The notes beneath the pieces are model-generated. The model did no database searches. It was not told the origin of the DNA and saw nothing but the letters and a program-made list of their open reading frames with translations. This document shows, piece by piece, positions 715-42,477 of a stretch of 49,050 nucleotides of DNA. The position numbers and the translations under genes were made by a program. Source of the stretch: Parcubacteria group bacterium GW2011_GWB1_40_14 (GTDB taxonomy: Bacteria > Patescibacteriota > Minisyncoccia > Terrybacterales > GWB1-40-14); contig LBYG01000008.1 of NCBI GenBank assembly GCA_000996085.1, forward strand, positions 1 to 49,050, in the 5' to 3' direction. The stretch's first letter is position 1, and each line of letters starts with the position of its first letter.

Positions 715-2907
715 TTATGACAATTGTTTAAAGCCATCTTTGGGTCTGCTGCCTTCAAGCGGTATGGTGAATGAAAAAGTTGTTCCTTTATCCTTTTCAG
801 AAACAAACCAGATGGTTCCACCCGAGAGCTCAATTGCCGACTTAGCAATAAAAAGCCCGAGCCCTGTTCCGTCTTGAATAATAGCCTGAGCATTACTTGC
901 CCGGAAAAATTTCTGGAAGATCCTGCTTTGTTCGTCTTTGGGAATGCCGTAGCCGTGATCGACAACGCTTATTTTTACAAATTCTTTATCTTTTTCCATT
1001 GTTATTGCAATATTGCCGTCGCGAAAACTATAGCGTATAGCATTTTGAATAAGATTTTCCAAAACAAACCTGATCAATCTTGGATCAAGCTTTATTAGGG
1101 GAAAATTGTCCTTGACGTCAAAACTTATATTTAAATTCTTCTGTTCCATATCCAATTTGGCTTCTTCTATAATAACCCCGACCAATTTTATTAAGTCCGT
1201 AATCTCCGGGACAACTGCCAACGTTTCCTGTTCTATACGCGAAACATTCAAAAGCATATTTACTGTATTTATAACCCGCTCTACCGAAGATAAAATATCG
1301 TCCACGAAAGCCTGCTGAGATTTATTTAATTCACCCACATCGCCGCGCGACATCATTTCAGAAAACCATTTAATAGTAGAAAGCGGCGTCCGCAGTTGAT
1401 GTGAAGCGATAGATACAAATTCTGATTTTATCCTATCCGCTTTAAACTCTCGGGTTTCATCGCTAACCACAATAACTGCGCCATAAATATTACCGTTGGC
1501 GTGCAAAAGCGGCGAAGCTGTTATTTCAACAGCTATACGCGCGTCGTTTTTGTCGAGCAAGAAAAACCCATCAACGAAAGAAAGATTAACTGATTTCTTT
1601 AGGATAAAAACCTTGGATAAAACCTCTCCATATATATCAAATGCCAGGCGCGATTTATCTACAAGATGAAGCCCTTCTTTTAAAGACTTACCTAAAACTT
1701 CTTCCACTGAATAACCAGTTAACTTAGTCATTGCGGCATTCCACAAATTGATCCTTCCATCTTTATCTACAGATAAAATACCTTCACCCGCAGACTCAAC
1801 CAATTCTGTGCCGTGTCTTGTTGCTTCGGCTTCGGCTCTGGAAACAGCTTCCACCTCCTGAAGTTTCTTTATTTCGGTCAGATCCTGGAGCGTTACCACG
1901 TTCCCTTTTATTCCTGTTGAGATGTCTGCAATGCGCTGCAATAACACGCGCACAGAAATTTTTTCTTTTTTCTGATTTGAAAAAATACTTTCCGAGTTAA
2001 AAAATTTAGAAAAAGCGCCTGCGGGTAATTCAGGTAAAAAATCTCTTATTTGTTTTGATAAAATCGCATTCTCTTCCGCCTTTGCCATTTTTTGCGCGGC
2101 CATATTCGCATAAACAATACGACCGTCCGTATTTGTTATAAAAACAGAATCAGCCAAAGTTCCCAAAACAAATGGCGCGGCTACTTCTATCCCAATACCC
2201 AAAAAGCCAAACCTAACTATAGCTACAGCAATAAATAAAGTATTCAAAGTTGTTGCCAAAGCTCCAAACTCAATAACCGAACTATGAAATATCGGCAAAA
2301 TACCGTCAGTATACAAACCTATGGTCACGGGCAACATAGCACCTATAAATAATGTTATGGCCTGTTTCCTTTTTGAAATTTCTTTTGTTGTTAACGCTGT
2401 CTTAAAATAAACGAAAGCCACCAGACCCATCTCAATAAACAACAGAGCCGTTAAAAAAATAAAAAGCTCTCCTGCCCTGCCCGTAAACCCCCAGGAATAC
2501 TGATGAGCTCCGCTATATATAAGATTGGAATTCCATATGAGTAAAAAAGCAAAAAAAGAAAAAAGACCAAAAACGCCCAATATTGTTTTTCTGGTAATAG
2601 AATTAACTCCGACAAAATAAAGACCGAACGCGCACTGCAAAAGCGGAGCCAAAATATATCCGATACTTGATACGCGTTCCCAAACAAGCGCCTGCATAGC
2701 TGTTTGGCTGGTGCGCTCCATAAAGTCCGCGCTCCCCCACAAAGCTATGCTGAAAGCAGCCATTGCATAAATGCGGTTAATGGTGCTTGCGGAATTTCGG
2801 TTTAAAGCAACAACGCCAAGAAAAAAGTTAAGCAAGCCCGCAAGCAAAGAAATGTAGGGGCCTTGAAGCAATTCTGTGGGCGAAACCAATAATGAACTAA
2901 AATCCAT
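715..2907 (-). CDS. Sensor histidine kinase (N-terminal 7TM, two PAS, HisKA, HATPase)
   Basis: About 7 TM segments, PAS motifs, H-box SHQLRTPL, N-box NLIQNAIRY, G-boxes DHGYGI and GTGLGL. Confidence 0.95.
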   Translation of the reverse strand: MDFSSLLVSPTELLQGPYISLLAGLLNFFLGVVALNRNSASTINRIYAMAAFSIALWGSADFMERTSQTAMQALVWERVSSIGYILAPLLQCAFGLYFVGVNSITRKTILGVFGLFSFFAFLLIWNSNLIYSGAHQYSWGFTGRAGELFIFLTALLFIEMGLVAFVYFKTALTTKEISKRKQAITLFIGAMLPVTIGLYTDGILPIFHSSVIEFGALATTLNTLFIAVAIVRFGFLGIGIEVAAPFVLGTLADSVFITNTDGRIVYANMAAQKMAKAEENAILSKQIRDFLPELPAGAFSKFFNSESIFSNQKKEKISVRVLLQRIADISTGIKGNVVTLQDLTEIKKLQEVEAVSRAEAEATRHGTELVESAGEGILSVDKDGRINLWNAAMTKLTGYSVEEVLGKSLKEGLHLVDKSRLAFDIYGEVLSKVFILKKSVNLSFVDGFFLLDKNDARIAVEITASPLLHANGNIYGAVIVVSDETREFKADRIKSEFVSIASHQLRTPLSTIKWFSEMMSRGDVGELNKSQQAFVDDILSSVERVINTVNMLLNVSRIEQETLAVVPEITDLIKLVGVIIEEAKLDMEQKNLNISFDVKDNFPLIKLDPRLIRFVLENLIQNAIRYSFRDGNIAITMEKDKEFVKISVVDHGYGIPKDEQSRIFQKFFRASNAQAIIQDGTGLGLFIAKSAIELSGGTIWFVSEKDKGTTFSFTIPLEGSRPKDGFKQLS

Positions 2908-3261
2908 CCCGTTAGAAGTCTGTATTATGTGTTATTTGATTAAATAACTTAAATTTCTACAGACTTATATTTAATGTCCCGTTAGTGCGCGCATAAAAAT
3001 TTCGTTTAAATTTTTATGCCGAAGACTTCTAACGGGATCCATACCAGGTAGTAGAACCAGGCAGTAGAACAAGTTCACTACCTGGCTTCGATTCGACTTT
3101 TTCGAATCAAGCTAGCGTAGCGAGCGGAATCCCATATTAAACCATCAGATTTTAGTACGGGATTGTATTTCTGGGCATACCCAGTAGAGCTACCTCGACA
3201 GTGAACTTTGCTTAGCAAAATTGACAAACGGCTTTGCAGTCGAGGTGATTCTACTGGACAT
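2908..3261. mobile_element. Stack of at least four nested or tandem miniature inverted-repeat elements at the kinase start codon
   Basis: IR pairs cccgttagaagtc/gacttctaacggg (2908-3036), accaggtagtag/tcactacctgg (3043-3085), tcccatattaaa/tttagtacggga (about 3130-3162) and ccagtaga/tctactgg (3180-3257). CAT recurs at 2905, 3040, 3176 and 3259. Confidence 0.75.
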
Positions 3262-3346
3262 GATATATTTATTATAGCTTTTTTGCGGCTAAGCTGGTAG
3301 CGCCAATAAATTATTTTAACTGATTATAGATAAAAACTATATAAAA

Positions 3347-3378
3347 ACCCCGTCAATCTTTTTTAGATTGACGGGGTA
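3347..3378. terminator. Intrinsic terminator hairpin
   Basis: accccgtcaatct/agattgacggggt stem with an A-tract on the left (U-tract on the minus strand). Confidence 0.6.
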
Positions 3379-3514
3379 ATCCCATTAAAAGTTTACAATA
3401 TTTATTCTAAATTACCTTAAAAACACGGTATTCTAGATAGAAAAAAGCCAGAAAGGATAGCTATCCTTTCTGGCTAGAAAATTTGCCCGTAAACTTCTAA
3501 CGGGACAGGATTGT

Positions 3515-3889
3515 TTAGTGCGGGCTGATCTTTCGAAGATCACCACCATGCGTGCCGTAGACCTTGGTCTTGACGACCTTGATCCAGTGATTGCCTGGGC
3601 GGCACATGGCCGACTTGCGATCCTTGCTCACCTTGACGCTGCCGGCGAAGTCCACGTTGGCGTAGAAGTCGTGCGGACGACAGATCGCCATAGGAGCAAC
3701 GTAGGTGCGCGAAGAAGGATCTTCTTCCTCTTCGGCGTCTTTCCCGATCATAACGGCCGTAAGTCCGGCCATATCGGAAAGGAGCTTTTCGGTGATCTCC
3801 ACAACAGAGTCATCAAGAACCAGCTCCGACACCGCGGCGAGATCTTCCGACGACTCGTTGGCCGATGCGGGCTGGATGCTTTCTGCCAT
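3515..3889 (-). CDS. Hypothetical protein, acidic N-terminus, C-terminal CRPH/CRPGNH possible metal site
   Basis: SD GAGAGG, promoter TTGACA-17-TAGACT, GC-rich codon pattern, downstream hairpin 3447-3476. Confidence 0.75.
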   Translation of the reverse strand: MAESIQPASANESSEDLAAVSELVLDDSVVEITEKLLSDMAGLTAVMIGKDAEEEEDPSSRTYVAPMAICRPHDFYANVDFAGSVKVSKDRKSAMCRPGNHWIKVVKTKVYGTHGGDLRKISPH

Positions 3890-3967
3890 TTCTAGAAAAC
3901 CTCTCTATGTTTTCAAAGTACAAACGTACTTTGTATAAAAATAGTCTATCATATAAAAGGAAATATG

Positions 3968-4102
3968 TCAACCCCGCACTTATTTTACGGTATAAGTTAA
4001 TAGTTTTGGAGTGTCGCAACACTCCAAAACTTCTACAACAGCAGTAAGCATTTCAGTTTAAACTTGTTTCTATAATTCTCTGTAAAATAGGTGCGGGGTC
4101 AA
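3968..4102. mobile_element. 127-bp MITE (CCCCGCAC...GTGCGGGG) with TCAA target duplication, copy 1
   Basis: Terminal IRs, internal hairpin gttttggagtg...cactccaaaac, TCAA on both sides, near-identical inverted copy at 6214-6348. Confidence 0.85.
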
Positions 4103-4194
4103 CCCCCCCTATTTACTGTGGAAATTAATCGTTGACCATACGAAAACCGCGTGATAAATGAAAGTTAATCAGATACTTTACACTTTGGTGCAAA

Positions 4195-4473
4195 ATGAAA
4201 CCGGGTATAAGCACCATTCAAACGCCTTATATATTAGTACAAGATGAGAACGATCCAAGAAACGGCCAAATCGCCATAGTTTTGGGAATCAAAACAATTA
4301 CACCTACTGACGGCAAGGGCTATCAATGCCTTTTAATAAAATTTTCCGATTGGGAACATCAATATGTTCCGCTATCAGAAATAATCGGTGTAGCAGAAAA
4401 CCCAAAGTATCATCTGCTCTCTCCGGAAGAAATTTACGAATTTAAAACAAAACCGCCCAGCCCTAAAAATTAG
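4195..4473 (+). CDS. Hypothetical protein
   Basis: 92-aa ORF behind a TTGACC...GATAAA/TAAAT promoter-like region. The stop codon lies inside a palindromic repeat arm. Confidence 0.6.
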   Translation: MKPGISTIQTPYILVQDENDPRNGQIAIVLGIKTITPTDGKGYQCLLIKFSDWEHQYVPLSEIIGVAENPKYHLLSPEEIYEFKTKPPSPKN

Positions 4474-4493
4474 AGCCGGACGGTTTTTACTTG

Positions 4494-4526
4494 CCCAGCT
4501 CTAATCCCTAGTGGATTAGGGTTGGG
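4494..4526. repeat. cccagctctaat...attagggctggg palindrome family; further copies near 4456, 6831, 10839, 13047, 15738, 19179, 20717, 23938, 24664
   Basis: Recurrent imperfect inverted repeat with a conserved mismatch. This copy is flanked by TTG and abuts TTGACA at 4527. Confidence 0.85.
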
Positions 4527-4597
4527 TTGACAAAATGATATATTTATGATACGATATTAATTACAACGTACTTTTACCGCATTCGGGAGGATACCTA

Positions 4598-4714
4598 ATG
4601 TTTGGTTCAACGCGTCGCAACGGCATGATCCGAAGGGTCATCCGCCTCAACGGCAAACTCTTCGGCTTCAAGCCTCGTCTCATCCCTGTTCCAATCCCGG
4701 TCACAAACCGCTAA
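4598..4714 (+). CDS. Small basic 38-aa peptide MFGSTRRNGMIRRVIRLNGKLFGFKPRLIPVPIPVTNR
   Basis: Own promoter TTGACA-17-TACGAT (4527-4555), SD GGGAGG, terminator 4721-4770. Too short for the ORF track. Confidence 0.7.
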   Translation: MFGSTRRNGMIRRVIRLNGKLFGFKPRLIPVPIPVTNR

Positions 4715-4839
4715 ACAAATGGCTCCGATAATTCGCCTCCGTCAGTTGACGGATGGCGAATCGGAGCCTTTAACTTTTTATGAACAGGATTGTGTTATTA
4801 TAAGCATTATTGTAATATATGACTTGTTAAATAAGCTTT

Positions 4840-4973: not shown

Positions 4974-6204
4974 ATGATCTTCAAAAAAGCTTCTGAAAAA
5001 ATTAATACATTCATACCCAAAGAAGCATTGTTGCTTTCCGGACTTATTTTTTTAAGTTATGTTCTTGGTCTTGTGCGCGACAGAATATTTGCGCGTACTT
5101 TCGGTTTAAGTTCCGCGCTTGATGCGTACAACGCGGCATTTATTTTACCCGAACTGTTCATTGATGTTCTAATAAGCGGGGCTTTGGGCGCCGCGTTCAT
5201 TCCGCTCTTTGTAGAAATTTACAAAAAAGATAAAGCGCGCAGCGAAGAATTTGCAAACACCACCATAACCTCTGCTGTGCTTGTAATGATAATAGGCGCC
5301 GCAGTATTAATATTGTTCGCGCCCAAAACCGTTTCTTTAATAGTTCCCGGATTTAACGCTGAAAACCAGTTGCTCTATTCAAATCTGCTCAGAATAATGG
5401 CGCTATCCCCTATAATTTTCGCGTTATCTATATCTTTGGGAGAAATTCTGGTGGCAAAAAGACAATTTTTATTCTATGGCCTGGCGCCGATACTTTATAA
5501 CTTCGGGATAATTTTGGGCACAATAATATTAAGCCCAAAGATAGGAATTTTTGGCGCGGCCATAGGCAGTATTTTGGGAGCATTGCTTTATCTTGCCATA
5601 CGGCTATTGGGAATATTTAGATCCGATTTCTCACTTAAGCCGGCATTTAATATAAAAATGCCGGAATTCCGCAAACTTTTGGTTCTTATGTTGCCCAAAA
5701 TGTTTGGCCATCCGATAGAGCCTCTTACGTTTTTGTTCTTTACCGCAGCAGCCAGTAGAATAGGCAGCGGGGACATAAGCGCGATAAGTTTCGGCCGCAA
5801 TTTCCAAAGCGTCCCCGTGGCGCTAATTGGCATAGCTTTTTCTATAGTTGTTTTTCCTCGAAAGGTTTTTTGGAGGAGGAGAATTTACCCAAGAAGCCAT
5901 ACAAAGAACTTCGCTGATACTTGGATTCTTTTCTATTTCGATACCGCTTGAAAGCTTATCGCATCTTTTAAGCCGTGCTTTTTTTGCCACCAAAAACACT
6001 TTCATCCCGGTTTGTGCCGCTTTTGCGGGATTGCTTACTATAGTAATAACAACAAATTATCTCTCGCCTACTTTGGGCATAATTGCTTTGCCGATAGCTT
6101 TTGCCGCAGGAACCGCAACAAAAATATTATTGCTTGGCGCAATATTGCCTCTACGCGTACGTTTTATACGTAAAAACTCTTTACTTGACGTAGCATCGAT
6201 ATAA
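4974..6204 (+). pseudogene. murJ: Lipid II flippase MurJ/MviN, split by a frameshifting internal deletion near 5858 (real or assembly error)
   Basis: LGLVRDRIFARTFG, DAYNAAFILPE, GALGAAFIPLF in one frame; LLSRAFFATKNTFIP in a second frame. About 405 aa in total, short for MurJ. Confidence 0.8.
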
Positions 6205-6213
6205 AAAGATGGG

Positions 6214-6348
6214 TTGACCCCGCACCTATTTTACAGAGAATTACAGAAATAAGTTTAAACTGAAATGTTTACTGCTGTTGTAGAAGTTTTGGAGTGTCGT
6301 GACACTCCAAAACTATTAACTTATACCGTAAAATAAGTGCGGGGTTGA
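6214..6348. mobile_element. 127-bp MITE with TTGA duplication, copy 2 (inverted)
   Basis: Reverse complement of copy 1 with a few substitutions. The right TTGA is the -35 of TTGATA-17-TATAAA. Confidence 0.85.
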
Positions 6349-6405
6349 TATTTTTTTATAATAAAGCTATAAAACACTGTTGTTTGAAATACAAAAAGGA
6401 GAAAG

Positions 6406-6883: not shown

Positions 6884-7777
6884 TTAAGTATTTACGTTTC
6901 CTCCTGATGCGCCCGGCCTATTTGCCGCAACTTCCCTAACTTTTGCTTTCCCTTCCTCACCTTGAGGCTCAGAAAGTTCTTCCAAAACGTGAATAGAACT
7001 AACAAGACTCTTTGCTAAGGCAGTAACGCCGGCGACAACTTCGCCTATCTCGTCAGTGCCGTCATAAATAGGAACATCATAATCCCCCTTCATAATTTTC
7101 CTGATACTGACGATAATTTTATGCAAACGCCTGATAATAACTCTGTACAAAATAAATAGATTAATCGCGTAAAAGATCAGGAAACCTACTATGAACAAAA
7201 TCGCCATGCGCACACTAAAATCTGCCAAAATTTCGTTCACCGAGTCAAGCTTCCAATAGCTGGCTACCACACCGACAACCTCTTTATCCCAGGCAAATTT
7301 AATCGGCACATAAATTTCTGCAAGCTCCTTAAAACCTTTTTCACTTACCTCGTGCTCTTGTTTAAGTTTAGTAAAATCAACGACAACCGCGTCTTTCAAA
7401 GCTTTTTGGTATTCCTCATTATTTTCGTATTTATTACCTATTATGCTTGGGTCATCGGAATAAATTATACGTCCGTTCTTATCCCAAACCTTGATACGAA
7501 CCAAACTATTTTTTGGGATAGCGGCCAGAAAATCTTCAAATTTTTCCTGTGACGCGTCGGAAAGTACGAAATCTTCAGCCGTAAAAAAACTTTGCGCGTA
7601 ATAATTGATAAACGAAACAACGCTGTTTTTGGTATGAACTATAAAAACCTCACGCGTATAATGCTTAACAAATATAAAAACCAAAGCCCCGAAAACTGTG
7701 AACATCAGAATAGTCGGGATAAAAAGTTTTATATATATTGAGTTAAACCTAAGCAGGTGGGATTTCAAATCGCTCAT
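6884..7777 (-). CDS. Membrane sensor protein: TM, Cache-like extracellular domain, TM, HAMP; no output domain
   Basis: RIKVWDKNGRIIYSDD and EIYVPI Cache-like motifs; HAMP-like GDYDVPI..DEIGEV. Confidence 0.8.
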   Translation of the reverse strand: MSDLKSHLLRFNSIYIKLFIPTILMFTVFGALVFIFVKHYTREVFIVHTKNSVVSFINYYAQSFFTAEDFVLSDASQEKFEDFLAAIPKNSLVRIKVWDKNGRIIYSDDPSIIGNKYENNEEYQKALKDAVVVDFTKLKQEHEVSEKGFKELAEIYVPIKFAWDKEVVGVVASYWKLDSVNEILADFSVRMAILFIVGFLIFYAINLFILYRVIIRRLHKIIVSIRKIMKGDYDVPIYDGTDEIGEVVAGVTALAKSLVSSIHVLEELSEPQGEEGKAKVREVAANRPGASGGNVNT

Positions 7778-7860: not shown

Positions 7861-7896
7861 CATACCAGGTAGTAGAACAAGTTCACTACCTGGCAT
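7861..7896. mobile_element. Short 30-bp ACCAGGTAGTAG...TCACTACCTGG element with CAT duplication
   Basis: cat-[accaggtagtagaacaagttcactacctgg]-cat. Confidence 0.75.
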
Positions 7897-7901
7897 AAAA
7901 A

Positions 7902-12392: not shown

Positions 12393-12767
12393 TTAACTAA
12401 AACTTTCGTTGAGAAGTTCATTTATTACCTTCTTTAATTCTTCGGTTCTGTTTTCTTTTACCAGTTCAAGAGGACTTTTACCAAAAAATACTTCTTTGGG
12501 TTCACGCAACCATTTTCGTATATAACGCTGTTCTACAATTTCAGAAAGTAAACGGCAAACGTCGTAAAGATAATCTATACGTACGCGCGCTTCAACCACC
12601 AAAACGTTATATCTCTCGCAATTGCGAATTGCGCGGACAGACACGCCGGCGGCAGAAGAAATATCGCGATAGCTAAGGAAACATTCCCGACGCAAAGCAG
12701 AAATTTGCTTACGGGCTTCATGCGTTTGCGGCAATTCTATGGACAATTTGCACACCCTCCGCCACAA
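12393..12767 (-). CDS. Xre/MbcA/ParS-type antitoxin (HTH plus toxin-binding domain)
   Basis: HTH LSYRDISSAAGVSVRAIRN; C-terminal WLREPKEVFFGKSPLELV. Confidence 0.75.
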   Translation of the reverse strand: MWRRVCKLSIELPQTHEARKQISALRRECFLSYRDISSAAGVSVRAIRNCERYNVLVVEARVRIDYLYDVCRLLSEIVEQRYIRKWLREPKEVFFGKSPLELVKENRTEELKKVINELLNESFS

Positions 12768-12979
12768 CAGGACTCTCTTTCGAGTTCGGCCTTGTGCTTA
12801 GCTTCATGTCGTACAATATGACCAAAACATACAACAGCATGTCCGCAACTGGCTTCTCTGCACATTTGGGTCATGCCCTCGGTAGGACAACCCAATTCCT
12901 CACATTCGACACATTCGGCAGGCTCAGTGCAGGCACATTCGGCAGGCTCAGTGCAGGCACATTCGGCAGGCTCAGACAT
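12737..12979 (-). CDS. Small Cys/His-rich protein with EPAECACT repeats
   Basis: SD AAGGAG, 14 Cys, 24-nt tandem repeat 12910-12976. Confidence 0.6.
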   Translation of the reverse strand: MSEPAECACTEPAECACTEPAECVECEELGCPTEGMTQMCREASCGHAVVCFGHIVRHEAKHKAELERESCCGGGCANCP

Positions 12980-13102
12980 TTATTTCTCCTTTAAAAGAAC
13001 CTTTTTTATTTATACAGCAACGCCTCTAAATTATCAAATAAAAAACACCCAGCTCTAATTAAGAATTAGGGCTGGGTATTTTTATAAATTTCAATTTAAC
13101 GA

Positions 13103-25212: not shown

Positions 25213-25254
25213 AAAATATAACGAATTTTAGTTTAACGTTATGAATTAAGGGTG

Positions 25255-25390
25255 TCAACCCCGCACTATTTTTACGGAACTTATATATAGCAAGGCTTCA
25301 ATCAAAAACGGTTGCGCCACTGCAAAAGTTTTGGAGTATTGCTACGCTCCAAAACTGTTAATTCGTTTAGTAAAAATAGTGCGGGGTCAA
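25255..25390. mobile_element. MITE with TCAA duplication, copy 5, on the rpsP -35
   Basis: ccccgcacta/tagtgcgggg IRs; the left TCAA is part of TTGACA-17-TAAACT. Confidence 0.85.
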
Positions 25391-25444
25391 CCCAAAAAAA
25401 TAAAAAGCTCTTCGTTTGAGAAGAGCTTTTAAAAAACAGTTGAA

Positions 25445-27358
25445 TTAGGCGTTTTGCAGTTTTGGCTTGCCGTGGGAATTCTCCTTTGGGGGCAGATCAG
25501 CAAAGATCTTTTCGAATTCTTCACGATAAACAGTCTCTTGGACAAGAAGTTTCTGAACAAGCGTTTCCAGTCTGTCTTTATACTGCGTGAGAGTTTCTCT
25601 GGCTCGTTCTCTGCCGCGATCAAGAATTTTCTTGATCTCTTCATCGATCAGTTTTGCAACCTCTTCTGAATAATTGCGCTGTTCACTAATATCACGGCCA
25701 AGGAAAATCATGGAATCGCGCTTACCAAAAGTTCGCGTGCCCAAACTTTCACTCATGCCGTACTGCATAACCATGTTTCGCGCAATTTCAGTTGCTTTTT
25801 CTATATCGTTTGAAGCGCCGGTTGTAACGTCACCGAAAATCATTCGCTCAGCTACATTACCGCCAAGCAATCCGGCGATTTGATCCTCAAACTCGGCTTG
25901 AGATCTGAGATAACGATCTTCCGTTGGAAGAGCCATAGTATAACCCAGGGTCATACCGCGGCTAATGATAGTAACTTTAGCTACCGGATCACATTTTGGA
26001 AGTATGCGCTGCACGATAGCGTGTCCGCTTTCGTGATAGGCAATAATGAGCTTCTCTGGCTCGGAAATGATCCGGCTTTTACGCTCAGGACCGGCAACCG
26101 CGCGTTCTATAGCTTCCAGAAACTCGCTCATACCGATGAGTTTAAGGTTTCTGCGGGCAGAAAGAATCGCGGCCTCATTCACTACGCCTGCAATGTCAGC
26201 ACCCGAGAAGCCGGGACACTGTCTTGCTAATTCTTCAAGATCAACTTCTTTGCTGATCAACTTGCCTCGTGCATGAACTTGGAAAATTGCAAGCCGACCT
26301 TTAAGGTCTGGCTTGTCTACGATGACCTGACGGTCAAATCTTCCGGGTCGAAGTAATGCGGGATCCAAAATATCAGGCCGGTTCGTTGCAGCCAACACGA
26401 TTATATTCGTGCTCTGCTCAAACCCGTCCATTTCAACAAGGATCTGGTTTAAGGTTTGTTCGCGTTCGTCGTGACTGCCGCCAAGACCGGATCCGCGTTG
26501 ACGTCCAACCGCATCGATCTCATCTACGAAAACAATTGCCGGACTATTTTTCCTGGCCTGCTCGAAAAGATCGCGCACGCGAGCGGCACCAACACCAACA
26601 AACATTTCAACAAATTCGGAACCCGAAATGCTGAAAAAAGAAGCACCGGCTTCTCCGGCAACCGCTCTTGCGATCAGAGTTTTTCCGCATCCCGGAGGGC
26701 CTACCAACAGAGCGCCTCTGGGCATCTTTGCGCCCAGGGTATTGAATTTCTCAGGATACTTAAGAAATTCCACTATCTCCTGAAGTTCTTGTTTTGCTTC
26801 CTCAACTCCGGCTACATCAGAAAACCTGACAGTACTTTTGCCATGAGTGTGGCGCGCACGCGAGCGGCCAAAATTCATCGCGTTATTATTCTGCTGCTGA
26901 TTTTTTTTCATAATGTACCAAAAAATTCCCAAGATAACCAAAATAGGAATGCCTACTGATATAAGCATTTGTATTAGTCCGTCGTCTGAAGGTGGTAGAC
27001 CGGAAATCGTAGGACCTTGACCTTCGTTCTGACACTTGGCTCCGGATTCAGCACAGACAGAAGTTATATCGGCTCGGATATCGGTGGTCAAAGCTCCCGG
27101 CACAGCAGACGTAACTGACGTGCCGGAACTAATATCTAAAGCCTTTTCCCCGTCTTCGGTGATTTTCAGCAAAAGTTTTCCGCTTTGCTCCTGCTCTACT
27201 TCAGTAACATACCCATCTTTTACTAAAGTCAAAAAAGAATTTTCAGCGTTATCGTAAGGGACAATTATTTCACCTTTTGAAAAAAAGCTTCCAAAAAGCA
27301 TCATTCCAAATACAATGACAAGCATTATCATAAGCATTCTTTTGGTATTGGGATTCAT
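25445..27358 (-). CDS. ftsH: ATP-dependent zinc metalloprotease FtsH
   Basis: Two TMs, [39 protein letters not shown]. Confidence 0.97.
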
Positions 27359-28687: not shown

Positions 28688-30763
28688 TTACGTAGGCAAT
28701 GCGGAAGTTTCTTCCTTGTCATCATCAACAGTTTCAGATTTCTGAAATAATCTGGCTTCAGTGTTCTTAACTGCTTCGGTGCCTGCAAAATTCTTGATGA
28801 ACTCTTTGATAAGTGCTTCACCTTCAAGTGTTTCAGCCCTTATAACTTCTGCAACAAGCCCCTCAAAACCAACCATATTGTCTTCAATGGCATGGCGTGC
28901 CGTATCTTTAGCCTGGTTGATAATGATAGCGATATTGTTATCTATCTTATCCTGCGTTTCCTGACTGAAACTACGAATAAGGTTATTCTCTTCAATATCG
29001 TATGTTCTAGTGGGCAAGTCATCACCCATGGCAAAATCGGTAACCATGCGCCGGGCCAAACGAGTAGCTTGTTTTAAATCGCTGCTTGGGCCAGTAGTAA
29101 TATCGCCTTTGAGAAGAATATCTTCAGCCACAAAACCGCCGTAATCGCTTGCAAGTTCAACCAAGAGATCGCTTTTGCTTTGCAGTAAAATATCACGGTC
29201 TGGCGTATACCAGGTCAAGCCTAAGGCGCGACCACGAGCCACAATGCTTATTTTATCGGGTATAGCATAACCCCTACTTGCAAAGAAACGCGCCACCGCA
29301 TGGCCACATTCATGCCAAGCGATCAATTTCTTCTCTGATTCCGTAAGAAGACGGGTCTTCTTTTCCGGACCGGCAACAATTCTATCTATGGCATCATCGA
29401 TATCTTTTGACAATATTTCATTGCCGTTCCTACGTGAAGCAAGTATGGCTGCCTCGTTCAAAACGTTTGCCAAATCAGCGCCAGAGAACCCCGGCGTTCT
29501 TTTGGCGATATCATATAGCTTAACCGCTTTGGCCAATTTCTTTCCCTTAGCGTGCACCTTAAGAATAGCTACACGACCCTTACGATCAGGAATGTCTACC
29601 ATAACTTGGCGGTCAAAACGACCTGGACGCAAAAGGCTTGGATCAAGAACATCTGGCCGGTTTGTGGCGCCTATGATCATTACACCATTTCTAATGTCAA
29701 ACCCATCCATTTCATGAAGAAGGGCGTTAAGTGTCTGAGCATACTCATCGCCGCCACCACCCATGGTTTGACTGCCGCGTTTTCGTCCAACCGCATCGAT
29801 CTCATCTATGAACACCACGCAAGGCGAATTGGCCCGCGCTGTTTCAAAAAGTTTCCTGATACGCGATGAACCAACGCCCACAAACATCTCAACAAAATCA
29901 GAACCGTTCGCTGAAAAGAACGGAACCCTAGCTGTACCCGCAACGGCTCTAGCAAGAAGGGTCTTGCCAGTACCGGGAGGACCGATAAGCAAGACACCTC
30001 TTGGCATACGCGCGCCAAGAGAAGTAAACTTCTCAGGATTTTTTAGGAAGTCCACGACTTCTTCAAGTTCAATCTTAGCCTCGTCCACTCCGGCAACATC
30101 TTTAAAGGTCACCTGTTCGATGCTAACACGCGAAGCGCCTGGGTTATCTGAAGATGACTGATGACCAGTCTGATTCTTATTTTTATCTTCGAATTTACGC
30201 CCATTGTTCGTGGGTGGATTGCTTCTAAGACGCCCAACAAACCGTAATATTAAAAAAATCCCACCTAAAAGCAACCCAAACATTAGAAAGCTAGATATTG
30301 GATTTCCGGGCTGCGGAGGCGGCGGAACTTTTTCCTCCTCTTTAATAATCTCGTACTCAAAGCGATTGGCGTCCGTAATAACTATTCCTTCTAGCGGCAA
30401 CAGATCAACCTTCAAATCCGTATTATTTGGTATATAAACAGATTCCTGAATATCATTTTTCAGTGTAACGATAAGCGTGACACCCCTTGCCACAACCTTC
30501 TTCACTTCACCATTTCTTATCTGATCATAAAGTTTTGTGAGAGGTTCCGTGCGAGGCGGACAATTTCGGCCACTGCATGGCACCGGAGTTGCGTATGAAT
30601 CAAACGTAGGTTGCGCGGTTGGATATGATTCTGTCTTTGGAGTGAGTTGATAAGAAGAACTTATTCCAACGGTTAAAACACGTAATACAAAAAAAGAAAA
30701 AATAACAGAAAAGGTTATGAGCAATATGATCACTAAGTCTTTAGGAATATTCGGGTGTTTCAC
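28688..30763 (-). CDS. ftsH: Second FtsH paralog
   Basis: [32 protein letters not shown]; divergent N-terminus. Confidence 0.93.
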
Positions 30764-30833: not shown

Positions 30834-30878
30834 CAACCCCGTTAGAAATCCGCCCTGTCGCAAACTCTAACGGGGCAA
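30834..30878. mobile_element. cccgttaga/tctaacggg element on the ftsH-2 -35 (CAA duplication); family also at 2908 and 33607
   Basis: caa-[ccccgttaga...tctaacgggg]-caa; minus strand reads TTGATT...TGGTATGCT. Confidence 0.7.
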
Positions 30879-30922: not shown

Positions 30923-31282
30923 TTATTCGAAAGGATTGGTTTCTATCTCAGGCTTAAACATGTTTACAAACTCCATCTTATATTCTTCTCCGAAACACGC
31001 TTGCATAGCTCCCGCTACATTAAAATGTGCGTCAAATGGTTTAGTGTCTTGAGGGGGATGTATTTCAAGCCTGCTTCCCCTATTATCTATAATAAAACCT
31101 TCCCCTAGCATGGCTTTTAGTTTTTCAACAAATTGTTGTGGGATAAAATTCCCTGAAGAGCCGTATCCTTCAAAATTAACAGTATATTCATGTTCGTGTC
31201 CCGGTCCTGCCCAGGCAACCCAGGATTTTGGTTTGGCCTGTTCTCTTCCCTCAAGATTTTTTGATAATTCAGGATTTTCCAT
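30923..31282 (-). CDS. Hypothetical protein
   Basis: 119-aa ORF; its start codon is duplicated by the adjacent MITE. Confidence 0.7.
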   Translation of the reverse strand: MENPELSKNLEGREQAKPKSWVAWAGPGHEHEYTVNFEGYGSSGNFIPQQFVEKLKAMLGEGFIIDNRGSRLEIHPPQDTKPFDAHFNVAGAMQACFGEEYKMEFVNMFKPEIETNPFE

Positions 31283-31420
31283 ACCAGGTAGTAGAAATTA
31301 GACTAATTTATCTATAAAATAGCGAATTTCTAATTAAAATTAATTATTAAAAATTTTATTAACTTAACCAGGTATTTTTGTTCCGCAAAGCGGAACGGTC
31401 TAATTTTCACTACCTGGCAT
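31280..31420. mobile_element. 135-bp MITE ACCAGGTAGTAG...TCACTACCTGG with CAT duplication
   Basis: Close copy at 42338-42477; CAT on both sides. Confidence 0.85.
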
Positions 31421-31422
31421 AA

Positions 31423-32109
31423 TTATTGCCACGCTTTTTCTTCTAATGCCCTCTGTGCGGCATTCCGCTGCGCTTCCTGTTTACTGGCGCCTTCGCCTTC
31501 GGCAATCAAATCTTCTCCCAAATAAACACCTATACGAAAATGCTTATCATGGTCAGGACCCCATTGCGCAAGAACTTCATAGCTTGGTGTAACTCCTTCT
31601 TTATCCTGAGCGATCTCCTGAAACAAACTTTTAGAATCCTGAAATAATTTGTCCTCTATTATTATAGGAAGCTTGGGAAGAATAAACTGAGAAATAAATT
31701 TTCTTGCGCTTTCAATACCTTGATCCAAATAAATTGCCCCGATTATTGCCTCAAGAGCATTGGCCAGTATAACTTGCCTGGCTCTGCCGGTATCCTTGGT
31801 CTCACCTCGCGACAATAATAAATGTTCGTTAACATCAATTTCTGTGGCAATTCTGCTTAACATCTGACTATTGACCAGACTTGCGCGCCACGCGGTAAGA
31901 TCTCCTTCAGGATTTTTAAAATTGTTAAATAAATACTCGGTCACTACTATTTCTAAAACAGCGTCTCCCAAAAATTCGAGACGCTCATTGTGTCCCAGCT
32001 TCCGATCAGTATGCTCATTGCTGTATGAACGATGGGTTAGAGCTTCAAGAAGAAAATCTTTATTTATAAAAGTTATACCTATCTTTTTCTCTAAAGATGA
32101 CAGATCCAT
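31423..32109 (-). CDS. rnc: Ribonuclease III
   Basis: ALTHRS, NERLEFLGDAVL, C-terminal dsRBD. Confidence 0.97.
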   Translation of the reverse strand: MDLSSLEKKIGITFINKDFLLEALTHRSYSNEHTDRKLGHNERLEFLGDAVLEIVVTEYLFNNFKNPEGDLTAWRASLVNSQMLSRIATEIDVNEHLLLSRGETKDTGRARQVILANALEAIIGAIYLDQGIESARKFISQFILPKLPIIIEDKLFQDSKSLFQEIAQDKEGVTPSYEVLAQWGPDHDKHFRIGVYLGEDLIAEGEGASKQEAQRNAAQRALEEKAWQ

Positions 32110-32231
32110 TAAAAAATAAAAAATCAAAAAGCAAAATGAAAAATGACAAATCAAAATCTAAAAATAAATGGTTTTGGTTATTTTTAAATTTTAATATGTG
32201 ATTTTAATATTTGATATTTAATTTTTGATAT
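32110..32231. repeat. Degenerate heptamer-repeat hairpin; family also at 18262-18385, 23588-23617, 38331-38437, 41020-41136
   Basis: About 7-nt periodic aaaatca-like units followed by complementary tttgata-like units. Confidence 0.7.
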
Positions 32232-33109
32232 TAAGATAATATTTCTCTCGTCTTCTCAAGTATACCGTCAAGATCATGATAATAATCTCCCGGAGCGGGA
32301 TCTTTAATAGAAACCCATCGCGTTTCAACTATCTTACTGTTTTCTGAGGGTTCTATTTTATCGGTTTTAGTTTCAACGATAAAATAAGTTATTTTCCTCT
32401 TGCTTTTTCCTTTAGAGGTGCTTTTTGAAACGTATTCAATGTCGCCTACGGCTTCGCCCACGGTTATATCAGTTATACCTATTTCTTTTTTAAGTTCTCT
32501 TTTTAATGCGGTAGCAGAATTTTTGTCCTTCAGAGTTAAATGACCTTTGGGAAAAACCCAAAAACCATATTTATCTTTAAGCCACAAAACTTTTATATCT
32601 TTATCATTATGATTTATTACTGCGGCGCCAACCAACAATTCTTCCGGCAGATCTTCATCAGGTTTCGTCTTGATGTGATCCTTCATTGGCTCGCCTATCT
32701 CGCGATAAATTGTTCCCAAAACGCCGTTAATAAATTTACCCGAGGTTTCTCCTCCAAAAGATTTGGCCAATTCTATGCTTTCATTTATTGCGACTTTTGG
32801 CGGAACAGCATTTCGATCTCCGAACAAAAGCTCGTAAATCCCTACGCGAAGAACGTTCCGGTCTACCATGGCTATCTGTTCAAGCGGCCACTCCGGAGCC
32901 GCTTTTTCGATTATGGTATCTATTTCTTTCTTCTTATCCAAAACTCCGTTAACAAGCATTTTTACAAATCCCTCTTCTTCAAGTCCCGGACCAAACTCTG
33001 TGATCACGTACTCAACAGCTGCATCAATTTTTTCATTATTACAGCCGTTAAAATCCCACTTATAGAGGGCTTGCATCGCTAAAGATCGCGCTAGATGACG
33101 ATTGGCCAT
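32231..33109 (-). CDS. nusB: Transcription antitermination factor NusB fused to a C-terminal NUDIX-like domain
   Basis: RHLARSLAMQALY, VDRNVLR, AINESIELAKSFG, FINGVLG; then WVFPKGH...LKRELKKEIG. Confidence 0.93.
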   Translation of the reverse strand: MANRHLARSLAMQALYKWDFNGCNNEKIDAAVEYVITEFGPGLEEEGFVKMLVNGVLDKKKEIDTIIEKAAPEWPLEQIAMVDRNVLRVGIYELLFGDRNAVPPKVAINESIELAKSFGGETSGKFINGVLGTIYREIGEPMKDHIKTKPDEDLPEELLVGAAVINHNDKDIKVLWLKDKYGFWVFPKGHLTLKDKNSATALKRELKKEIGITDITVGEAVGDIEYVSKSTSKGKSKRKITYFIVETKTDKIEPSENSKIVETRWVSIKDPAPGDYYHDLDGILEKTREILS

Positions 33110-33219
33110 GCCGTTGTTGCTCCTGACCCATTCGACAAGCTCAGGGTCATCCTTACGGATGAGCTCTCAAAGAAGAGCGACCTGTGGTGAGCCCGTCGAA
33201 CCAAGTCGAAGGATTTCAT
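33107..33219. mobile_element. Composite REP insert at the nusB start codon (sister at rpmF start, 33487-33560)
   Basis: Both read cat-gcc(g/a)ttgttgc...aagtcgaaggattt-cat. Confidence 0.7.
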
Positions 33220-33234
33220 TATCAAAAATAAAAA

Positions 33235-33489
33235 TTAGGCACCGGTCTTACCCATAGCCTGAGCTACTTTAGCTTCCCTATCCTGACGTTTTTTATCTCT
33301 TTTAGTTTTTTTAGCTAAAGGATTAAAAACTTCTCGAGAGCCGTAAAAGCCGCAACTCATACAAACTCTGTGAGGTAATATCATTTTACCACAATGAGAA
33401 CATTGGACTAAATTTGACGGAGTTAAGGCGTGATGGCTTCGACGTCGATTTCGCCTACCGCTTGTGTGTCTTTGTTTTGGTACTGGCAT
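33235..33489 (-). CDS. rpmF: 50S ribosomal protein L32 (Zn-ribbon type, C-terminal extension)
   Basis: MPVPKQRHTSGRRNRRRSH, CSHC...HRVCMSCGFY. Confidence 0.95.
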   Translation of the reverse strand: MPVPKQRHTSGRRNRRRSHHALTPSNLVQCSHCGKMILPHRVCMSCGFYGSREVFNPLAKKTKRDKKRQDREAKVAQAMGKTGA

Positions 33490-33740
33490 GCCATTGTTGC
33501 CTGCGAACATCGCGAGCGACTGCAACAATGTGCATCCTGAGCGAAGTCGAAGGATTTCATTATTATTTAACTTTACTACATTAACCAATTTAACTGATTT
33601 TTGCAATCCCGTTAGAAGTAGCCTCGCCAAGGTTCTTTAAGAACTCGGACCCGTTGGGTACAAGCGAGACTTCTACCGGGATGCAACTATTTAATTATTA
33701 AATAAAAAAGTCCTTTATTTAAGGACTTTTAAAAATTTGG

Positions 33741-40226: not shown

Positions 40227-40318
40227 CGTATAGCGGTTAGCGTACAGCGTTTAGACTAAAAAACTCCGTCCTGAGCGAAGTCAAAGGGCGGAGTTTTTGT
40301 TCACAAATTATCTATAAT

Positions 40319-40843
40319 TTATCCAAGCAAATTACCTAAAATTTCTTTTACCCTTCCCTTATTCGCTTTAGCTTGCCGCTCTTCTGTTTCTCTTCTCTGT
40401 TGTTCTTCAACTTCTGTTCTTGCTTTATTTAAAAGATAATCGCCCTGCAACTCCGCGGCTGGTAAGTATTTTTCAAAAAGTTTTTCGGCATCTTTTCCTT
40501 CAACAGAAAGATCATCAACCGTACCTTCAAACCATACAGAATAATTCTTACCGCCACTATGCATCTCTCTTATCGCAATACGATGCCCGTCTATTGTTCC
40601 TTCAATAACATTTCTTTCATGACCACTAGTATGTGTAGTAAGTCTCACGTCAACGTTAGCTAAAGATTCTTGCGTCAGACCTTTTTTCTCTGCCCTCTTT
40701 AAAGCTTGTTCTCTATATTGTGCCGCCAACTTCTGTTCAGGAGTTTCTGGTTCCTGTGGTGGTTGCTGTTCAGATGTTTGTAATTGTTCAGGCTTTAAAC
40801 CCATCTCTTCAGGCGATGGACCGCCTTTTTCTGGATTTGGCAT
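40319..40843 (-). CDS. Hypothetical protein with low-complexity P/E/Q N-terminus
   Basis: 174-aa ORF; promoter TTGACC...TATGCT at about 40981-41008. Confidence 0.75.
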   Translation of the reverse strand: MPNPEKGGPSPEEMGLKPEQLQTSEQQPPQEPETPEQKLAAQYREQALKRAEKKGLTQESLANVDVRLTTHTSGHERNVIEGTIDGHRIAIREMHSGGKNYSVWFEGTVDDLSVEGKDAEKLFEKYLPAAELQGDYLLNKARTEVEEQQRRETEERQAKANKGRVKEILGNLLG

Positions 40844-41169
40844 AAATTTATAATTTAATTCTTTAAAAAAGTTGGCGTAAGACTGTGAGCGTCATTAAGG
40901 CTTTGAACCTCTTGCCGGAACGGCTTTCGGTGTGGAGAGATCCCTTGCAGACGCGAACGGTCTTGCGCCAACTTATCTTAAGCATACCGCCCCTCCCTAA
41001 AAGGTCAATCCACTTATAAATCCAAACGCTAAATCTCAAATATCAAATAAAATCTAAATATCAAAATTCCAAAATGCGTTTAATATTCTAGACTTTTAAA
41101 CTTGATTTGATCTTTGGATTTTGTTATTTGGATTTAAGTAGCGTTAAATGCTGCTATAATATCAAAATT

Positions 41170-42204
41170 ATGGACAAATCTGTCGACACGCGAAAATCGA
41201 AAATAATTGTAATTGTAGGCCCTACCGCTTCCGGCAAAACTGCTCTTGCAATCCGTCTCGCTAAAAAATTCAAAGGCGAGATTATTTCTGCAGATTCAAG
41301 ACAAGTTTATCGCGGTATGGATATTGGAACAGACAAACCCTTCGACTCCTTCGATTTCGCTCAGGACAGGCCGGCTCAGGGTAAACCCAAAAAAATAGGA
41401 AATGCCATCATAATTCGTGGAATATCCCACCACTTAATTGATGTTGTAGAGCCAAATGATAGTTTCACTTTAGGACACTGGCTTGAACTTGCCAAAAAAG
41501 CAATTACAGAAATTGAACAGAGAAATCACATACCAATAATTGCCGGCGGAACGGGACTTTATATATCGGCGTTGCTTTATGGATTTGAAATTCCTGTCGT
41601 TCCGCCAAATCCGAAACTTCGCAAAAAACTTGAAGCAGAAATAAAAAAATACGGCACCAAACGCCTGGCCAAAAAAATACTCCAAAAAGACCCCCAAGCC
41701 GCAGTTTTCCTGGATACAAAAAACCCGCGCAGGCTGATACGCGCCTGGGAAGTAATGGAGGCTACAGGCAAAAAATTTTCTCAAATCAGAAAAAGATCCG
41801 CGCAACCAAAATACAACACGCTTATTGTGGGTCTTACTTTACCCAAAAATGATATTGAACGAAAAATAGCTCTGCGACTTAAAAAGCAGTTTAAAAAAGG
41901 ATTAAAAAAGGAGGTACTTACTTTGTCAAAAAAATATGGTTGGAACGTGTCTTCAATGAACACTTTGGGTTATTCTCAATGGAAAAACCATTCGCATAAC
42001 AACTCATTAAATGATAAAAACGTTTTCGGGACAATTCTTAAAGACACAATACGATATAGCAAACGGCAGATAACTTGGTTCAAGAAAATGAACGATATTA
42101 TATGGCTAGATGCTAAAAACAAAAAACCCCGCACCCGAGTAAACTCGGTGCGGGGCAGACGCCTGGAAAACCAGGCCGCCAAATATATTCGTAAATTTTT
42201 ATAA
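41170..42204 (+). CDS. miaA: tRNA dimethylallyltransferase with two in-frame palindromic inserts
   Basis: GPTASGKT, ISADSRQVYRGMDIGTDK, HHLID, GGTGLY, YSKRQITWF. Confidence 0.97.
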   Translation: MDKSVDTRKSKIIVIVGPTASGKTALAIRLAKKFKGEIISADSRQVYRGMDIGTDKPFDSFDFAQDRPAQGKPKKIGNAIIIRGISHHLIDVVEPNDSFTLGHWLELAKKAITEIEQRNHIPIIAGGTGLYISALLYGFEIPVVPPNPKLRKKLEAEIKKYGTKRLAKKILQKDPQAAVFLDTKNPRRLIRAWEVMEATGKKFSQIRKRSAQPKYNTLIVGLTLPKNDIERKIALRLKKQFKKGLKKEVLTLSKKYGWNVSSMNTLGYSQWKNHSHNNSLNDKNVFGTILKDTIRYSKRQITWFKKMNDIIWLDAKNKKPRTRVNSVRGRRLENQAAKYIRKFL

Positions 42205-42244
42205 CGAAAAACTCTAAATAACAGATTATTTAGAAATTTATTTT

Positions 42245-42340
42245 TTATTCGTTCTTTTTGCCTCCCCCGCCTGTAAATAAATCAATAAGCATTATGAAAG
42301 GCATAAAGATGATCATGATAATGTCTTCTATAATTTTCAT
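42245..42340 (-). CDS. 31-aa hydrophobic small protein MKIIEDIIMIIFMPFIMLIDLFTGGGGKKNE
   Basis: Promoter TTGACA...TGGTATAAT at about 42490-42513; MITE inserted at its ATG. Confidence 0.5.
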   Translation of the reverse strand: MKIIEDIIMIIFMPFIMLIDLFTGGGGKKNE

Positions 42341-42477
42341 ACCAGGTAGTAGAAATTAGACTATTCTATAAATAAATTAGCTGATTTCTAGTTAAAATTG
42401 ATTATTAAAATTTTATTAACTTAACCAGGTATTTTTGTTCCGCTTTGCGGAACGGTCTAATTTTCACTACCTAGCAT
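42338..42477. mobile_element. 134-bp MITE with CAT duplication
   Basis: Close copy of 31280-31420. Confidence 0.85.

Follow-up and report, generated by a model that had tools for sequence, protein, structure and literature searches.

The IS200/IS605 insertion sequences and the REP/RAYT systems are moved by a tyrosine transposase of the HUH type, and they have neither target duplications nor terminal inverted repeats. The Correia elements of Neisseria reportedly duplicate the dinucleotide TA, and they are said to have no known origin in a nuclease gene and no tie to start codons. In the present paper we describe short repeats with inverted ends, called family A, which are inserted on start codons with duplication of the ATG in a stretch of 49,050 nucleotides from Parcubacteria group bacterium GW2011_GWB1_40_14 (GenBank assembly GCA_000996085.1, contig LBYG01000008.1, positions 1 to 49,050; hereafter the window) and elsewhere in the genome of this organism, together with a longer relative in which the same ends enclose the gene of a small GIY-YIG nuclease. 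We consider it rather probable that family A and two further families, D and C, are non-coding derivatives, of the type known as MITEs (for miniature inverted-repeat transposable elements), of a minimal GIY-YIG mobile element, and that the scheme of start-codon capture set out below holds as a whole.

The length of about 100–150 bp, the inverted repeats, the target duplication, the many copies, the position beside genes and the long transcript hairpin recall the Correia elements, bacterial MITEs that are transcribed together with adjacent genes, but here the ATG itself is part of the target, and what the full-length form encodes is a GIY-YIG nuclease. Very small size, hairpin ends, a tetranucleotide target, a fixed orientation and gene-less hairpin derivatives are also features of IS200/IS605 and REP/RAYT, whereas the corresponding transposase, Y1_Tnp (PF01797), was not found in the genome under study and the flanks co-vary on both sides, as expected of a duplication. 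Two published systems involve GIY-YIG proteins. In the Ssn system (NTS-ssnA-NTS), the gene of a small GIY-YIG single-strand nuclease lies between hairpin repeats of its own, a layout that its authors compare to an insertion sequence (Chenal et al. 2025, PMC11893778). The likeness to the Ssn family (cd10448) lies in the single-domain GIY-YIG protein of about 90–100 residues (86 residues here) and in the placement of its gene between an inverted-repeat sequence that is also found in many gene-less copies, mostly outside genes. In our case, however, both flanks pair together as terminal inverted repeats instead of forming two self-contained hairpins; the target duplication, TATG and the start-codon position have no counterpart in the available part of the Ssn article, where the term 'start codon' occurs 0 times; and the best solved relatives are UPF0213 proteins. 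In bacteria of the candidate phyla radiation (CPR), insertions in rRNA genes have been described that belong to neither of the intron groups I and II and encode GIY-YIG proteins, next to insertions of less than 200 bp without an open reading frame (ORF; PMC11270868). The bacterial group is the same and GIY-YIG insertions are involved, but these insertions are located inside rRNA genes, and the accessible portion of that article makes no mention of ends, duplication or a link to start codons. Full-text searches of the literature returned no account of GIY-YIG elements in bacteria that combine target duplications with terminal inverted repeats, of MITEs in CPR bacteria, or of insertion at start codons.

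The genome under study (G000; 944,541 bp in 38 contigs, approximately 40% G+C, 92.8% complete) belongs to a class of CPR-type bacteria with genomes of 0.5–1.2 Mb, and the DNA runs in which it is contained are labelled as groundwater and soil metagenomes. Contigs are indicated by C and a number, the window being contig C8, and loci from other genomes of the class by L and a number. Genes were called with a simple home-made caller based on codon usage, which gave 950 genes and 82% coding sequence. For comparison we used all 827 kb of a genome of the same genus (G001), in which rnc is 73% identical to its counterpart at the DNA level.

Family A: ends, target duplication and mobility

The genome contains 57 copies of family A, counted as sequences of at least 60 bp with both ends paired; 53 of them measure 120–150 bp, about 135 bp being typical. 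The ends read CCAGGTAGT...ACTACCTGG, or in fuller form CCAGGTAGTAGAAATT.GAC...GTC.AATTTTCACTACCTGG, and constitute terminal inverted repeats of 20 bp that are 93% paired across the 53 copies. Most copies are flanked on both sides by TATG when read in the direction of the gene (CATA/CATA on the plus strand), and the repeat at families A and D thus comprises four nucleotides and not the three of the CAT that was originally proposed. Eight copies have identical flank pairs that deviate from the consensus (CACA, CAAG, TATT, CTTA, CGTG, CGGA, CATT and CATG, in the plus orientation of the element). Since these pairs match on both sides, the 4-bp flank is a true target duplication and not a part of the element. 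In eleven more copies the two flanks are mismatched at one or two letters or offset by one base. It is always the GTAGTAGAA end that adjoins the TATG on the gene side, so orientation relative to the target is fixed in all copies of this genome; the sole reversed copy was found in G001, on CATG, which is the same on both strands.

Family A shows the properties of MITEs: its members are short, non-coding and multicopy, they possess inverted ends and a target duplication, they are present at some loci and absent from the orthologous ones, and they have a longer coding relative. The frame that begins at the outer ATG stops after 6–53 codons, and a search for an internal outward promoter gave one weak match only, on the wrong strand. 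Like families D and C, family A is mobile. At contig C24, positions 21175 and 21848, which are 673 bp apart, carry the same outer half of a family-A copy, about 95 nt long, with a different sequence after each; a duplication or rearrangement at the element may have left this pattern.

The two ends vary in concert. Position 3 of the end is an A–T pair in 39 copies and G–C in 9, position 17 is C–G in 38, A–T in 6 and T–A in 5, and position 20 is C–G in 45 and T–A in 6; the overall pairing of 93.4% compares with at most 91.1% in 2000 shuffles of the partners, none of which reached the observed value. This co-variation agrees with the folding of a single strand, but we rejected it as a proof of a hairpin, since it is equally expected if one protein reads both ends. 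A small G+C-rich hairpin near the outer end is also kept through changes on both sides (GTTCGC...GCGAAC, GTTCCGC...GCGGAAC, GCTCACC...GGTGAGC). On the plus strand of the window, at 31378–31407, this small hairpin is followed by TCTAATTTTC and scores as terminator-like, antisense to the host gene.

The conservation pattern could also mean that the copies have by now become parts of the host, as structured leaders that are held by selection for regulation of the downstream gene. The two ends of 22 nt are 90% alike and the interiors on average 60% (maximum 86%, for the two copies of the window), the outer ATG has been lost in only two of about 40 copies at start codons, and the predicted fold is strong (for the window copy at 31284, −47.8 kcal/mol, z −6.6). 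That same copy is kept in related strains, as judged from contigs of four DNA runs. No contig bridging an empty site at 31284 was found among these contigs, and apparent 'joints' in them were rejected as empty sites, being other copies of the repeat. Conserved ends are, however, equally expected for elements that need mobility, the genes that carry a copy are not the same ones in the two species of the genus and have no common function, and the non-standard pairs in the stems are without strand bias (12 G–T versus 9 A–C), where a constraint at the RNA level would give one. Because these exceptions are balanced, there is no sign of a constraint that acts on a single strand only, and an origin of the pattern in leader function appears improbable to us.

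Insertion on start codons

After deletion of each copy with one flank repeat by a script, 43 of the 57 reconstructed sites read TATG. In the genome, TATG occurs 493 times at the first ATG of a called gene, 1168 times in intergenic DNA and 5756 times inside genes; the base composition of the intergenic class is close to average, and RNA genes, further repeats and small genes that escaped the caller must be among its members. A blind rule assigned 34 of the 43 sites to the first ATG of a gene, six to intergenic DNA and three to the inside of a gene. With 30% expected from the TATG sites outside genes (p = 3e-11), the original prediction of an association with start codons beyond chance is borne out. 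Inspection turns four or five of the nine exceptions into true starts, by which the number rises to 38–39 of 43. These are the starts of rpmJ (37 aa, Pfam L36 at residues 1–37), of an ORF cut by the contig end that has an 83%-identical orthologue in G001, of pgk (where the Pfam match begins at residue 6 and at profile position 1), of a 68-aa ORF conserved in G001 and, probably, of the 31-aa ORF at 42340 of the window, which is also conserved in G001. The other 14 of the 57 copies have different duplications and are found off starts, at short ORFs; the duplication of CAT at start codons across the genome thus applies to the TATG copies and not to these 14. Copies flanked by CAA or CAC were considered as markers of TTG and GTG starts, and this was rejected as the ORFs have only 2–11 codons.

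The start sites were compared with those in G001, where 37 of the 45 ORFs that open at the inner ATG of a family-A copy have a match. In 23 of these an ATG is present at the codon projected onto residue 1, and the N-termini of the remaining 14 are a few codons apart. No element is present in the 60 nt upstream of 20 of the 23 starts in G001, while two carry a family-B-like leader and one, of a DksA-like gene, carries a family-A copy. Conversely, G001 has some ten family-A copies of its own, seven of which open ORFs of 120–351 codons, including mreB-, mreC-, obg- and adk-like genes, and no family-A end was found upstream of the G000 orthologues of those genes. The alignment to orthologous loci that had been suggested as a check therefore yields empty sites in both directions. 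For the insertion shared by the DksA-like genes, the internal identity of 0.61 is about that of the background (0.56–0.60) and leaves an old and an independent event undiscriminated.

Pfam domains were recognized in 31 of 40 ORFs downstream of family-A copies. The occupied genes include those for L36, S6, L29, GyrB, SerRS, PGK, iPGM, IMPDH, FtsA, PilM, trigger factor, GreA, MraZ, RecJ, a Clp ATPase and signal peptidase, and the match starts from profile position 1–2 for L36, MraZ, SerRS, trigger factor, PGK, GreA and L29. Since the G001 and Pfam comparisons agree, the elements are on the real starts of housekeeping genes. The excess at starts may reflect active recognition of start codons at insertion as well as filtering afterwards.

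The genome shows a leaderless signature, and the original prediction left room for an enzyme that targets transcription start sites instead of start codons, for example at the melted promoter of a leaderless gene, where TATG would be exposed as a single strand. A TANNNT box peaks at −12 (90 genes against a background of about 30) and TGnTANNNT at −15 (31 genes), so that about one-tenth of the genes have a leaderless-type −10 box; the 3′ end of the 16S rRNA carries CCTCC, and Shine–Dalgarno-like tetramers peak at −14 to −10, with such a motif in only about one-fifth of the genes. A leaderless-type box is found at 12 of the 34 occupied starts, and Ssn-type GIY-YIG nucleases act on single-stranded DNA only, according to PMC11893778. 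The frequency of the box at occupied starts is, however, not different from that at other TATG starts (115 of 458, p = 0.22), and copies also occur at internal genes of operons. The copy at 31284 involves no transcription start, since within an operon it follows the stop codon of rnc at a distance of 2 nt, and the reconstructed sites at C9:24328 and C2:25958 are likewise just behind stop codons. The common factor is the start codon and not the start of transcription, and targeting of promoters, the least probable of the explanations treated here, is hardly to be expected.

A GIY-YIG gene between the same ends

At positions 5221–5526 of contig C38, outside the window, a copy of 306 bp with family-A ends and TATG on both sides encloses a GIY-YIG gene of 86 residues. 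It is inserted on the start of an ORF of 117 codons, behind a TATATT box, and the nuclease gene has the direction of the host gene. The protein consists of a single domain, with a match to PF01541 (GIY-YIG) over residues 3–72 (E 4.6e-16, 59.3 bits versus a cut-off of 22.6), and among solved structures it is best matched by the UPF0213 proteins 1zg2 and 1ywl. There are 12 GIY-YIG matches in the genome, eleven of which are small genes, and one is in an open frame of 436 codons that we take to be uvrC. The small GIY-YIG genes at C21:6270, C35:12416 and C24:15381–15614 are accompanied by direct or hairpin repeats of other kinds, some beside tRNA-like sequence, which suggests that several pairs of nuclease and repeat are present in this one 0.94-Mb genome.

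Homologues of the nuclease were detected in 107 of 151 sampled genomes of the class (E <= 1e-8), often several per genome, and from more than 300 class matches the 30 best-scoring loci were inspected, plus two in G001. The gene is surrounded by A-type ends at L085–L088, L090 and L091, of which L086–L088, L090 and L091 are from other genera, by C-type ends (CCCGTTAGAG/A...) at L096, L109, L110, L112, L114 and contigs C22 and C24 of G001, and by other ends, CC(C/G)G..., at L098–L101, L103 and L107. The idea that one enzyme mobilises all these repeats is not supported: GIY-YIG genes do occur between A-type as well as C-type ends, but as a nuclease family with several end types and not as one enzyme.

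The position of the gene with respect to the flanking ATGs is also conspicuous. A long ORF on the same strand begins within 33 nt of the nuclease stop codon in 11 of the 30 best-scoring loci. Where an ATG abuts the outer end (16 loci), the nuclease frame is open from this ATG in 11 cases (p = 0.004 versus one-third), reading for example ATG CCA GGT AGT GAA..., ATG CCC AGT AAT... or ATG AAT CCC GTT AGA..., and in four of these 11 there is no other ATG before the conserved core. The C-type nuclease copies end with ...CTAACGGGATGA, in which the stop codon TGA shares letters with the ATG that opens the following gene; in contig C22 of G001 this gene begins with MKALITAGGRGTRLRPLT. In such copies the duplicated target provides the nuclease with its start codon and, for the C-type, with its stop codon as well, and an ATG remains for the host gene.

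Of the candidate genes that the original prediction recommended to look for between the termini, only those of the GIY-YIG type were found. The genome, 92.8% complete, gave 0 matches to six transposase families, comprising DDE types (of the insertion sequences IS4/IS5, IS3, IS630 and IS256), IS110 and HUH (PF01609 DDE_Tnp_1, PF00665 rve, PF01797 Y1_Tnp, PF13358 DDE_3, PF00872 Transposase_mut and PF01548 DEDD_Tnp_IS110), and no pair of family-A ends within 6 kb encloses more than the 306-bp copy. A pair of family-C ends at C4:3320, 354 bp in length, was rejected as a full-length element because it is a false pair around an ordinary gene start.

These results bear on the possibility that the repeats are ordinary MITEs of a DDE-type transposase that was lost or is missing from the assembly, with a plain TATG specificity, so that the start position would be passive and the GIY-YIG gene a passenger. 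A T precedes the first ATG in 53% of the called genes, insertions within genes would be lethal and the other intergenic DNA is mostly functional, so starts would be what remains; indeed starts already make up 30–51% of the TATG sites outside genes, the occupied sites have no extra motif, and co-variation of the two ends is also expected from one protein that binds both. On the other hand, 34 to 39 of 43 copies at starts exceeds even the null of 51% (p = 1.4e-4 or lower), and the intergenic off-target copies (14) outnumber the intergenic TATG copies (at most six), which a tetranucleotide rule does not predict. Furthermore, the GIY-YIG gene is located within the same ends in several genera and within two end types, and in 11 of 16 loci its frame continues from the ATG that flanks it. 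Together with the lack of matches to the six transposase families in this genome, this makes a DDE origin unlikely.

Start-codon capture

The scheme that we propose departs from a parent element that would consist of two inverted ends of about 20 bp around a single GIY-YIG nuclease gene of 83–88 codons, without a promoter of its own. Its insertion would duplicate a short target containing ATG, which is TATG (4 bp, in one orientation) for families A and D and a sequence of 5–6 bp for family C (ATGAAT, ATCCAT), and this would leave one ATG on each side of the element. If the insertion is on a start codon and in the direction of the gene, the outer ATG would retain the promoter and initiation context of the host, and in many full-length copies it would open the nuclease frame through the inverted end. 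The inner ATG would leave the host gene intact, the nuclease stop codon being placed 5–33 nt upstream of it or overlapping it as ATGA. As the outer ATG would serve the nuclease and the inner ATG the host, the host start would be borrowed and then returned by the element. MITEs that have the same ends and target would be moved in trans. Observed directly are the mobility, the target duplication, the fixed orientation, the position on start codons, the presence of the nuclease gene within the same ends and its frame relation to the flanking ATG. The GIY-YIG nuclease is the candidate mobilising enzyme; we infer from the arrangement of the gene that it would make the cuts for transposition, that strand joining would follow and that the host gene would continue to be expressed.

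At the RNA level, the predicted fold of the family-A copy of the window has a terminal stem that includes both copies of UAUG, because of which the inner AUG would be hidden in unprocessed RNA. In one possible model, initiation at the outer AUG would let the ribosome unwind the 5′ arm and thereby release the inner AUG, and RNase III, the product of the adjacent gene rnc (31423–32154), could cut the stem of the element.

Several points weigh against this interpretation. In the genome under study there is one nuclease-bearing copy for 57 MITEs, its nuclease frame does not continue from the outer ATG (29 nt where 30 would be required) and has an internal ATG, and the conserved small hairpin of the MITEs is absent from it. 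The class loci that were inspected are the best-scoring 30 of more than 300 and are mutually related, and in five of the 16 loci with an abutting ATG the nuclease is out of frame with it. No GIY-YIG enzyme is known to join DNA strands, cleavage of these ends by the nuclease is a prediction from sequence, and a transposase could be located in unassembled repeats since the genome is 92.8% complete. The statistics on start codons depend on the home-made gene caller, and the expected fraction rises to 40–51% if the 10 nt upstream must be A+T-rich, by which the probability of 34 of 43 becomes 2e-7 at 40%, 1e-5 at 46% (upstream AT at least 0.8) and 1.4e-4 at 51%. No extra sequence motif that sets occupied apart from other TATG starts was found in G000.

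Elements in the window

The features of the window are listed in Table 1. The original prediction named CAT on both sides at six sites, with the inner CAT as the start codon of minus-strand ORFs and the outer ATG close to TATAAT at 3259 and 42475; all of this was confirmed, the box being 9 nt upstream at both positions. Two of its examples belong elsewhere: folA, which it took to start with an element of the same kind, has an in-frame tandem duplication, and the units at nusB and rpmF belong to family B, which is discussed below.

Table 1 Repeats and related features at gene starts in the window (coordinates on the plus strand)
Feature	Span	Strand	Element and flanks	CAT, left/right	ORF opened by inner CAT	Remarks
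Family C MITE	2902–3042	.	2908–3036, 129 bp; ends CCCGTTAGAAGT...ACTTCTAACGGG; ATCCAT on both sides	left 2905–2907	730 aa (2907)	Left CAT is the start codon of a histidine kinase gene, which is preceded by a stack of three elements
Family A variant, different in internal sequence	3040–3179	−	3044–3175, outer end decayed; CATA at 3040–3043 and 3176–3179			Second layer of the stack; three copies in the genome
Family D MITE	3176–3262	−	3180–3258; ends CCCAGTAG...CTACTGGA (right end also given as CTACTGG); flanks CATA, CATG	3176–3178/3259–3261		Third layer of the stack; outer ATG 9 nt downstream of TATAAT
Family A, short 29-bp hairpin form	7861–7897	−	7865–7893; CATA on each side	7861–7863/7894–7896	25 aa (7863), not a credible gene	Not at a credible start; follows closely on the stop codon of a DEAD-box helicase gene, with the promoter and ATG of gene 6884–7777 about 80 nt downstream
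Family A MITE	31280–31421	−	31284–31417, 134 bp; CATA at 31280–31283 and 31418–31421	31280–31282/31418–31420	119 aa (31282), ORF 30923–31282	Inner CATA contains the start codon; outer CATA 2 nt behind the rnc stop codon
Family-B-type leader unit containing additional internal repeats	33107–33219	−	33110–33216	33107–33109/33217–33219	292 aa NusB-NUDIX (33109)	Ends exactly at the nusB-NUDIX start; NusB residues 7–136 match Pfam profile 3–133
Family B 67-nt leader unit	33487–33560	−	33490–33556, then one T (33557)	33487–33489/33558–33560	84 aa L32 (33489)	Ends exactly at the rpmF start; L32 residues 3–56 match Pfam profile 2–55
Short family-C-type element	33608–33680	.	73 bp			Upstream of the rpmF leader
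Family A MITE	42338–42478	−	42342–42474, 133 bp; CATA at 42338–42341 and 42475–42478	42338–42340/42475–42477	31 aa (42340)	Outer ATG has TGgTATAAT 9 nt upstream
folA start, two in-frame tandem 24-nt units	46360–46407	−	Each unit begins with ATGATTTAT			Not a terminal-inverted-repeat element

The first ATG of folA overlaps the thyA stop codon (ATGA), and the DHFR domain starts from residue 19. The duplication comprises the first eight codons, and its unit resembles a short GAGCGAAGTCGAAGG repeat that occurs throughout the genome.

Families B, C and D

Family D has four copies, with the flanks TAAG/TAAG, CATA/CATA, CATA/CATG and CAAG/CACG. Family C, of 32–35 copies of about 125 bp, duplicates a target of 5–6 nt, since at least five of six flank bases match in 21 of 32 copies versus 5% in the background (e.g. 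ATCCAT, ATTCAT, ATGAAT, ATATGT, GTTGAC and GTCAAC). Of 35 family-C copies, 14 adjoin the point where an ORF of 80 or more codons begins, in either orientation, and the other positions include −35-box-like sites. As had been noticed in the window, the termini CC(C/A)G...C(G/T)GG are common to families A, C and D. The rule that all targets are CA(A/T) is not strict enough: the CAA and CAC copies are off TTG and GTG starts, and the duplication of family C comprises 5–6 nt.

Family B is distinct from families A, C and D. Its unit of 67 nt is without terminal inverted repeats and consists of AATCCTTCGACTTCGCTCAGGATGCAC, a hairpin with paired changes in the stem, and GGC. At 12 of 12 real genes (33490–33556 in the window and 11 other loci in the genome), the unit stops precisely where the ATG begins. 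These genes include dnaK and rpmF and, as recognised by eye, presumably those for L20 and L28. An outer CAT is present in only four of 17 copies, and a grouping of the nusB and rpmF units with the inverted-repeat elements can therefore not be maintained. Family B could be a conserved leader or a mobile cassette of promoter and leader. A TAAnGT-like box abuts the upstream edge of the unit.

Other features of the window

A search of the window against Rfam returned 16S rRNA and one tRNA only, and no repeat family matched at the gathering score. Another repeat family of about 140 bp is present at 3966–4105, 6212–6351 and 25253–25393, with the ends CCCCGCAC...GTGCGGGG and a hairpin AGTTTTGGAG...CTCCAAAAC; two copies have GTCAAC on both sides, and the family is probably one of the '−35 families' of the original prediction. 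At 12910–12981, a 24-nt unit, CACATTCGGCAGGCTCAGTGCAGG, is present three times in tandem at the 5′ end of ORF 12737–12979. The related strains of the four DNA runs have a 30-nt insertion behind position 30865, in the interval that separates the 119-aa ORF from the ftsH-like gene. As to genes, nusB is fused to a NUDIX domain (32231–33109), and there are two genes for FtsH-type proteases (25445–27358 and 28688–30763) and two for thymidylate kinase (45078–45731 and 47230–47910).

Implications

We tentatively suggest, with somewhat less confidence than for the capture scheme, that the elements represent an undescribed superfamily of minimal autonomous transposons of which the sole protein is a GIY-YIG nuclease of about 85 residues, and in which the duplicated start ATG supplies the start of the nuclease (and, with C-type ATGA, also its stop) and restores the start of the host gene. 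If this is true, a mobile element exists that lives inside the translation start site. If the nuclease mobilises it, this would be the smallest self-contained kind of DNA transposon so far, of about 300 bp, and the first bacterial one that is built on GIY-YIG. The choice of target would also be unusual, as the ATG of essential genes (L36, gyrB, serS, pgk, ftsA, trigger factor) is occupied without death of the host. The annotation of genomes is directly concerned, as the elements give rise to upstream ATGs and to spurious extensions of N-termini. The elements may also serve as a test system for translation initiation in the ultra-small CPR bacteria, for the extent to which a gene tolerates a 135-nt hairpin on its start codon, and for the role of the many small GIY-YIG genes in CPR genomes.

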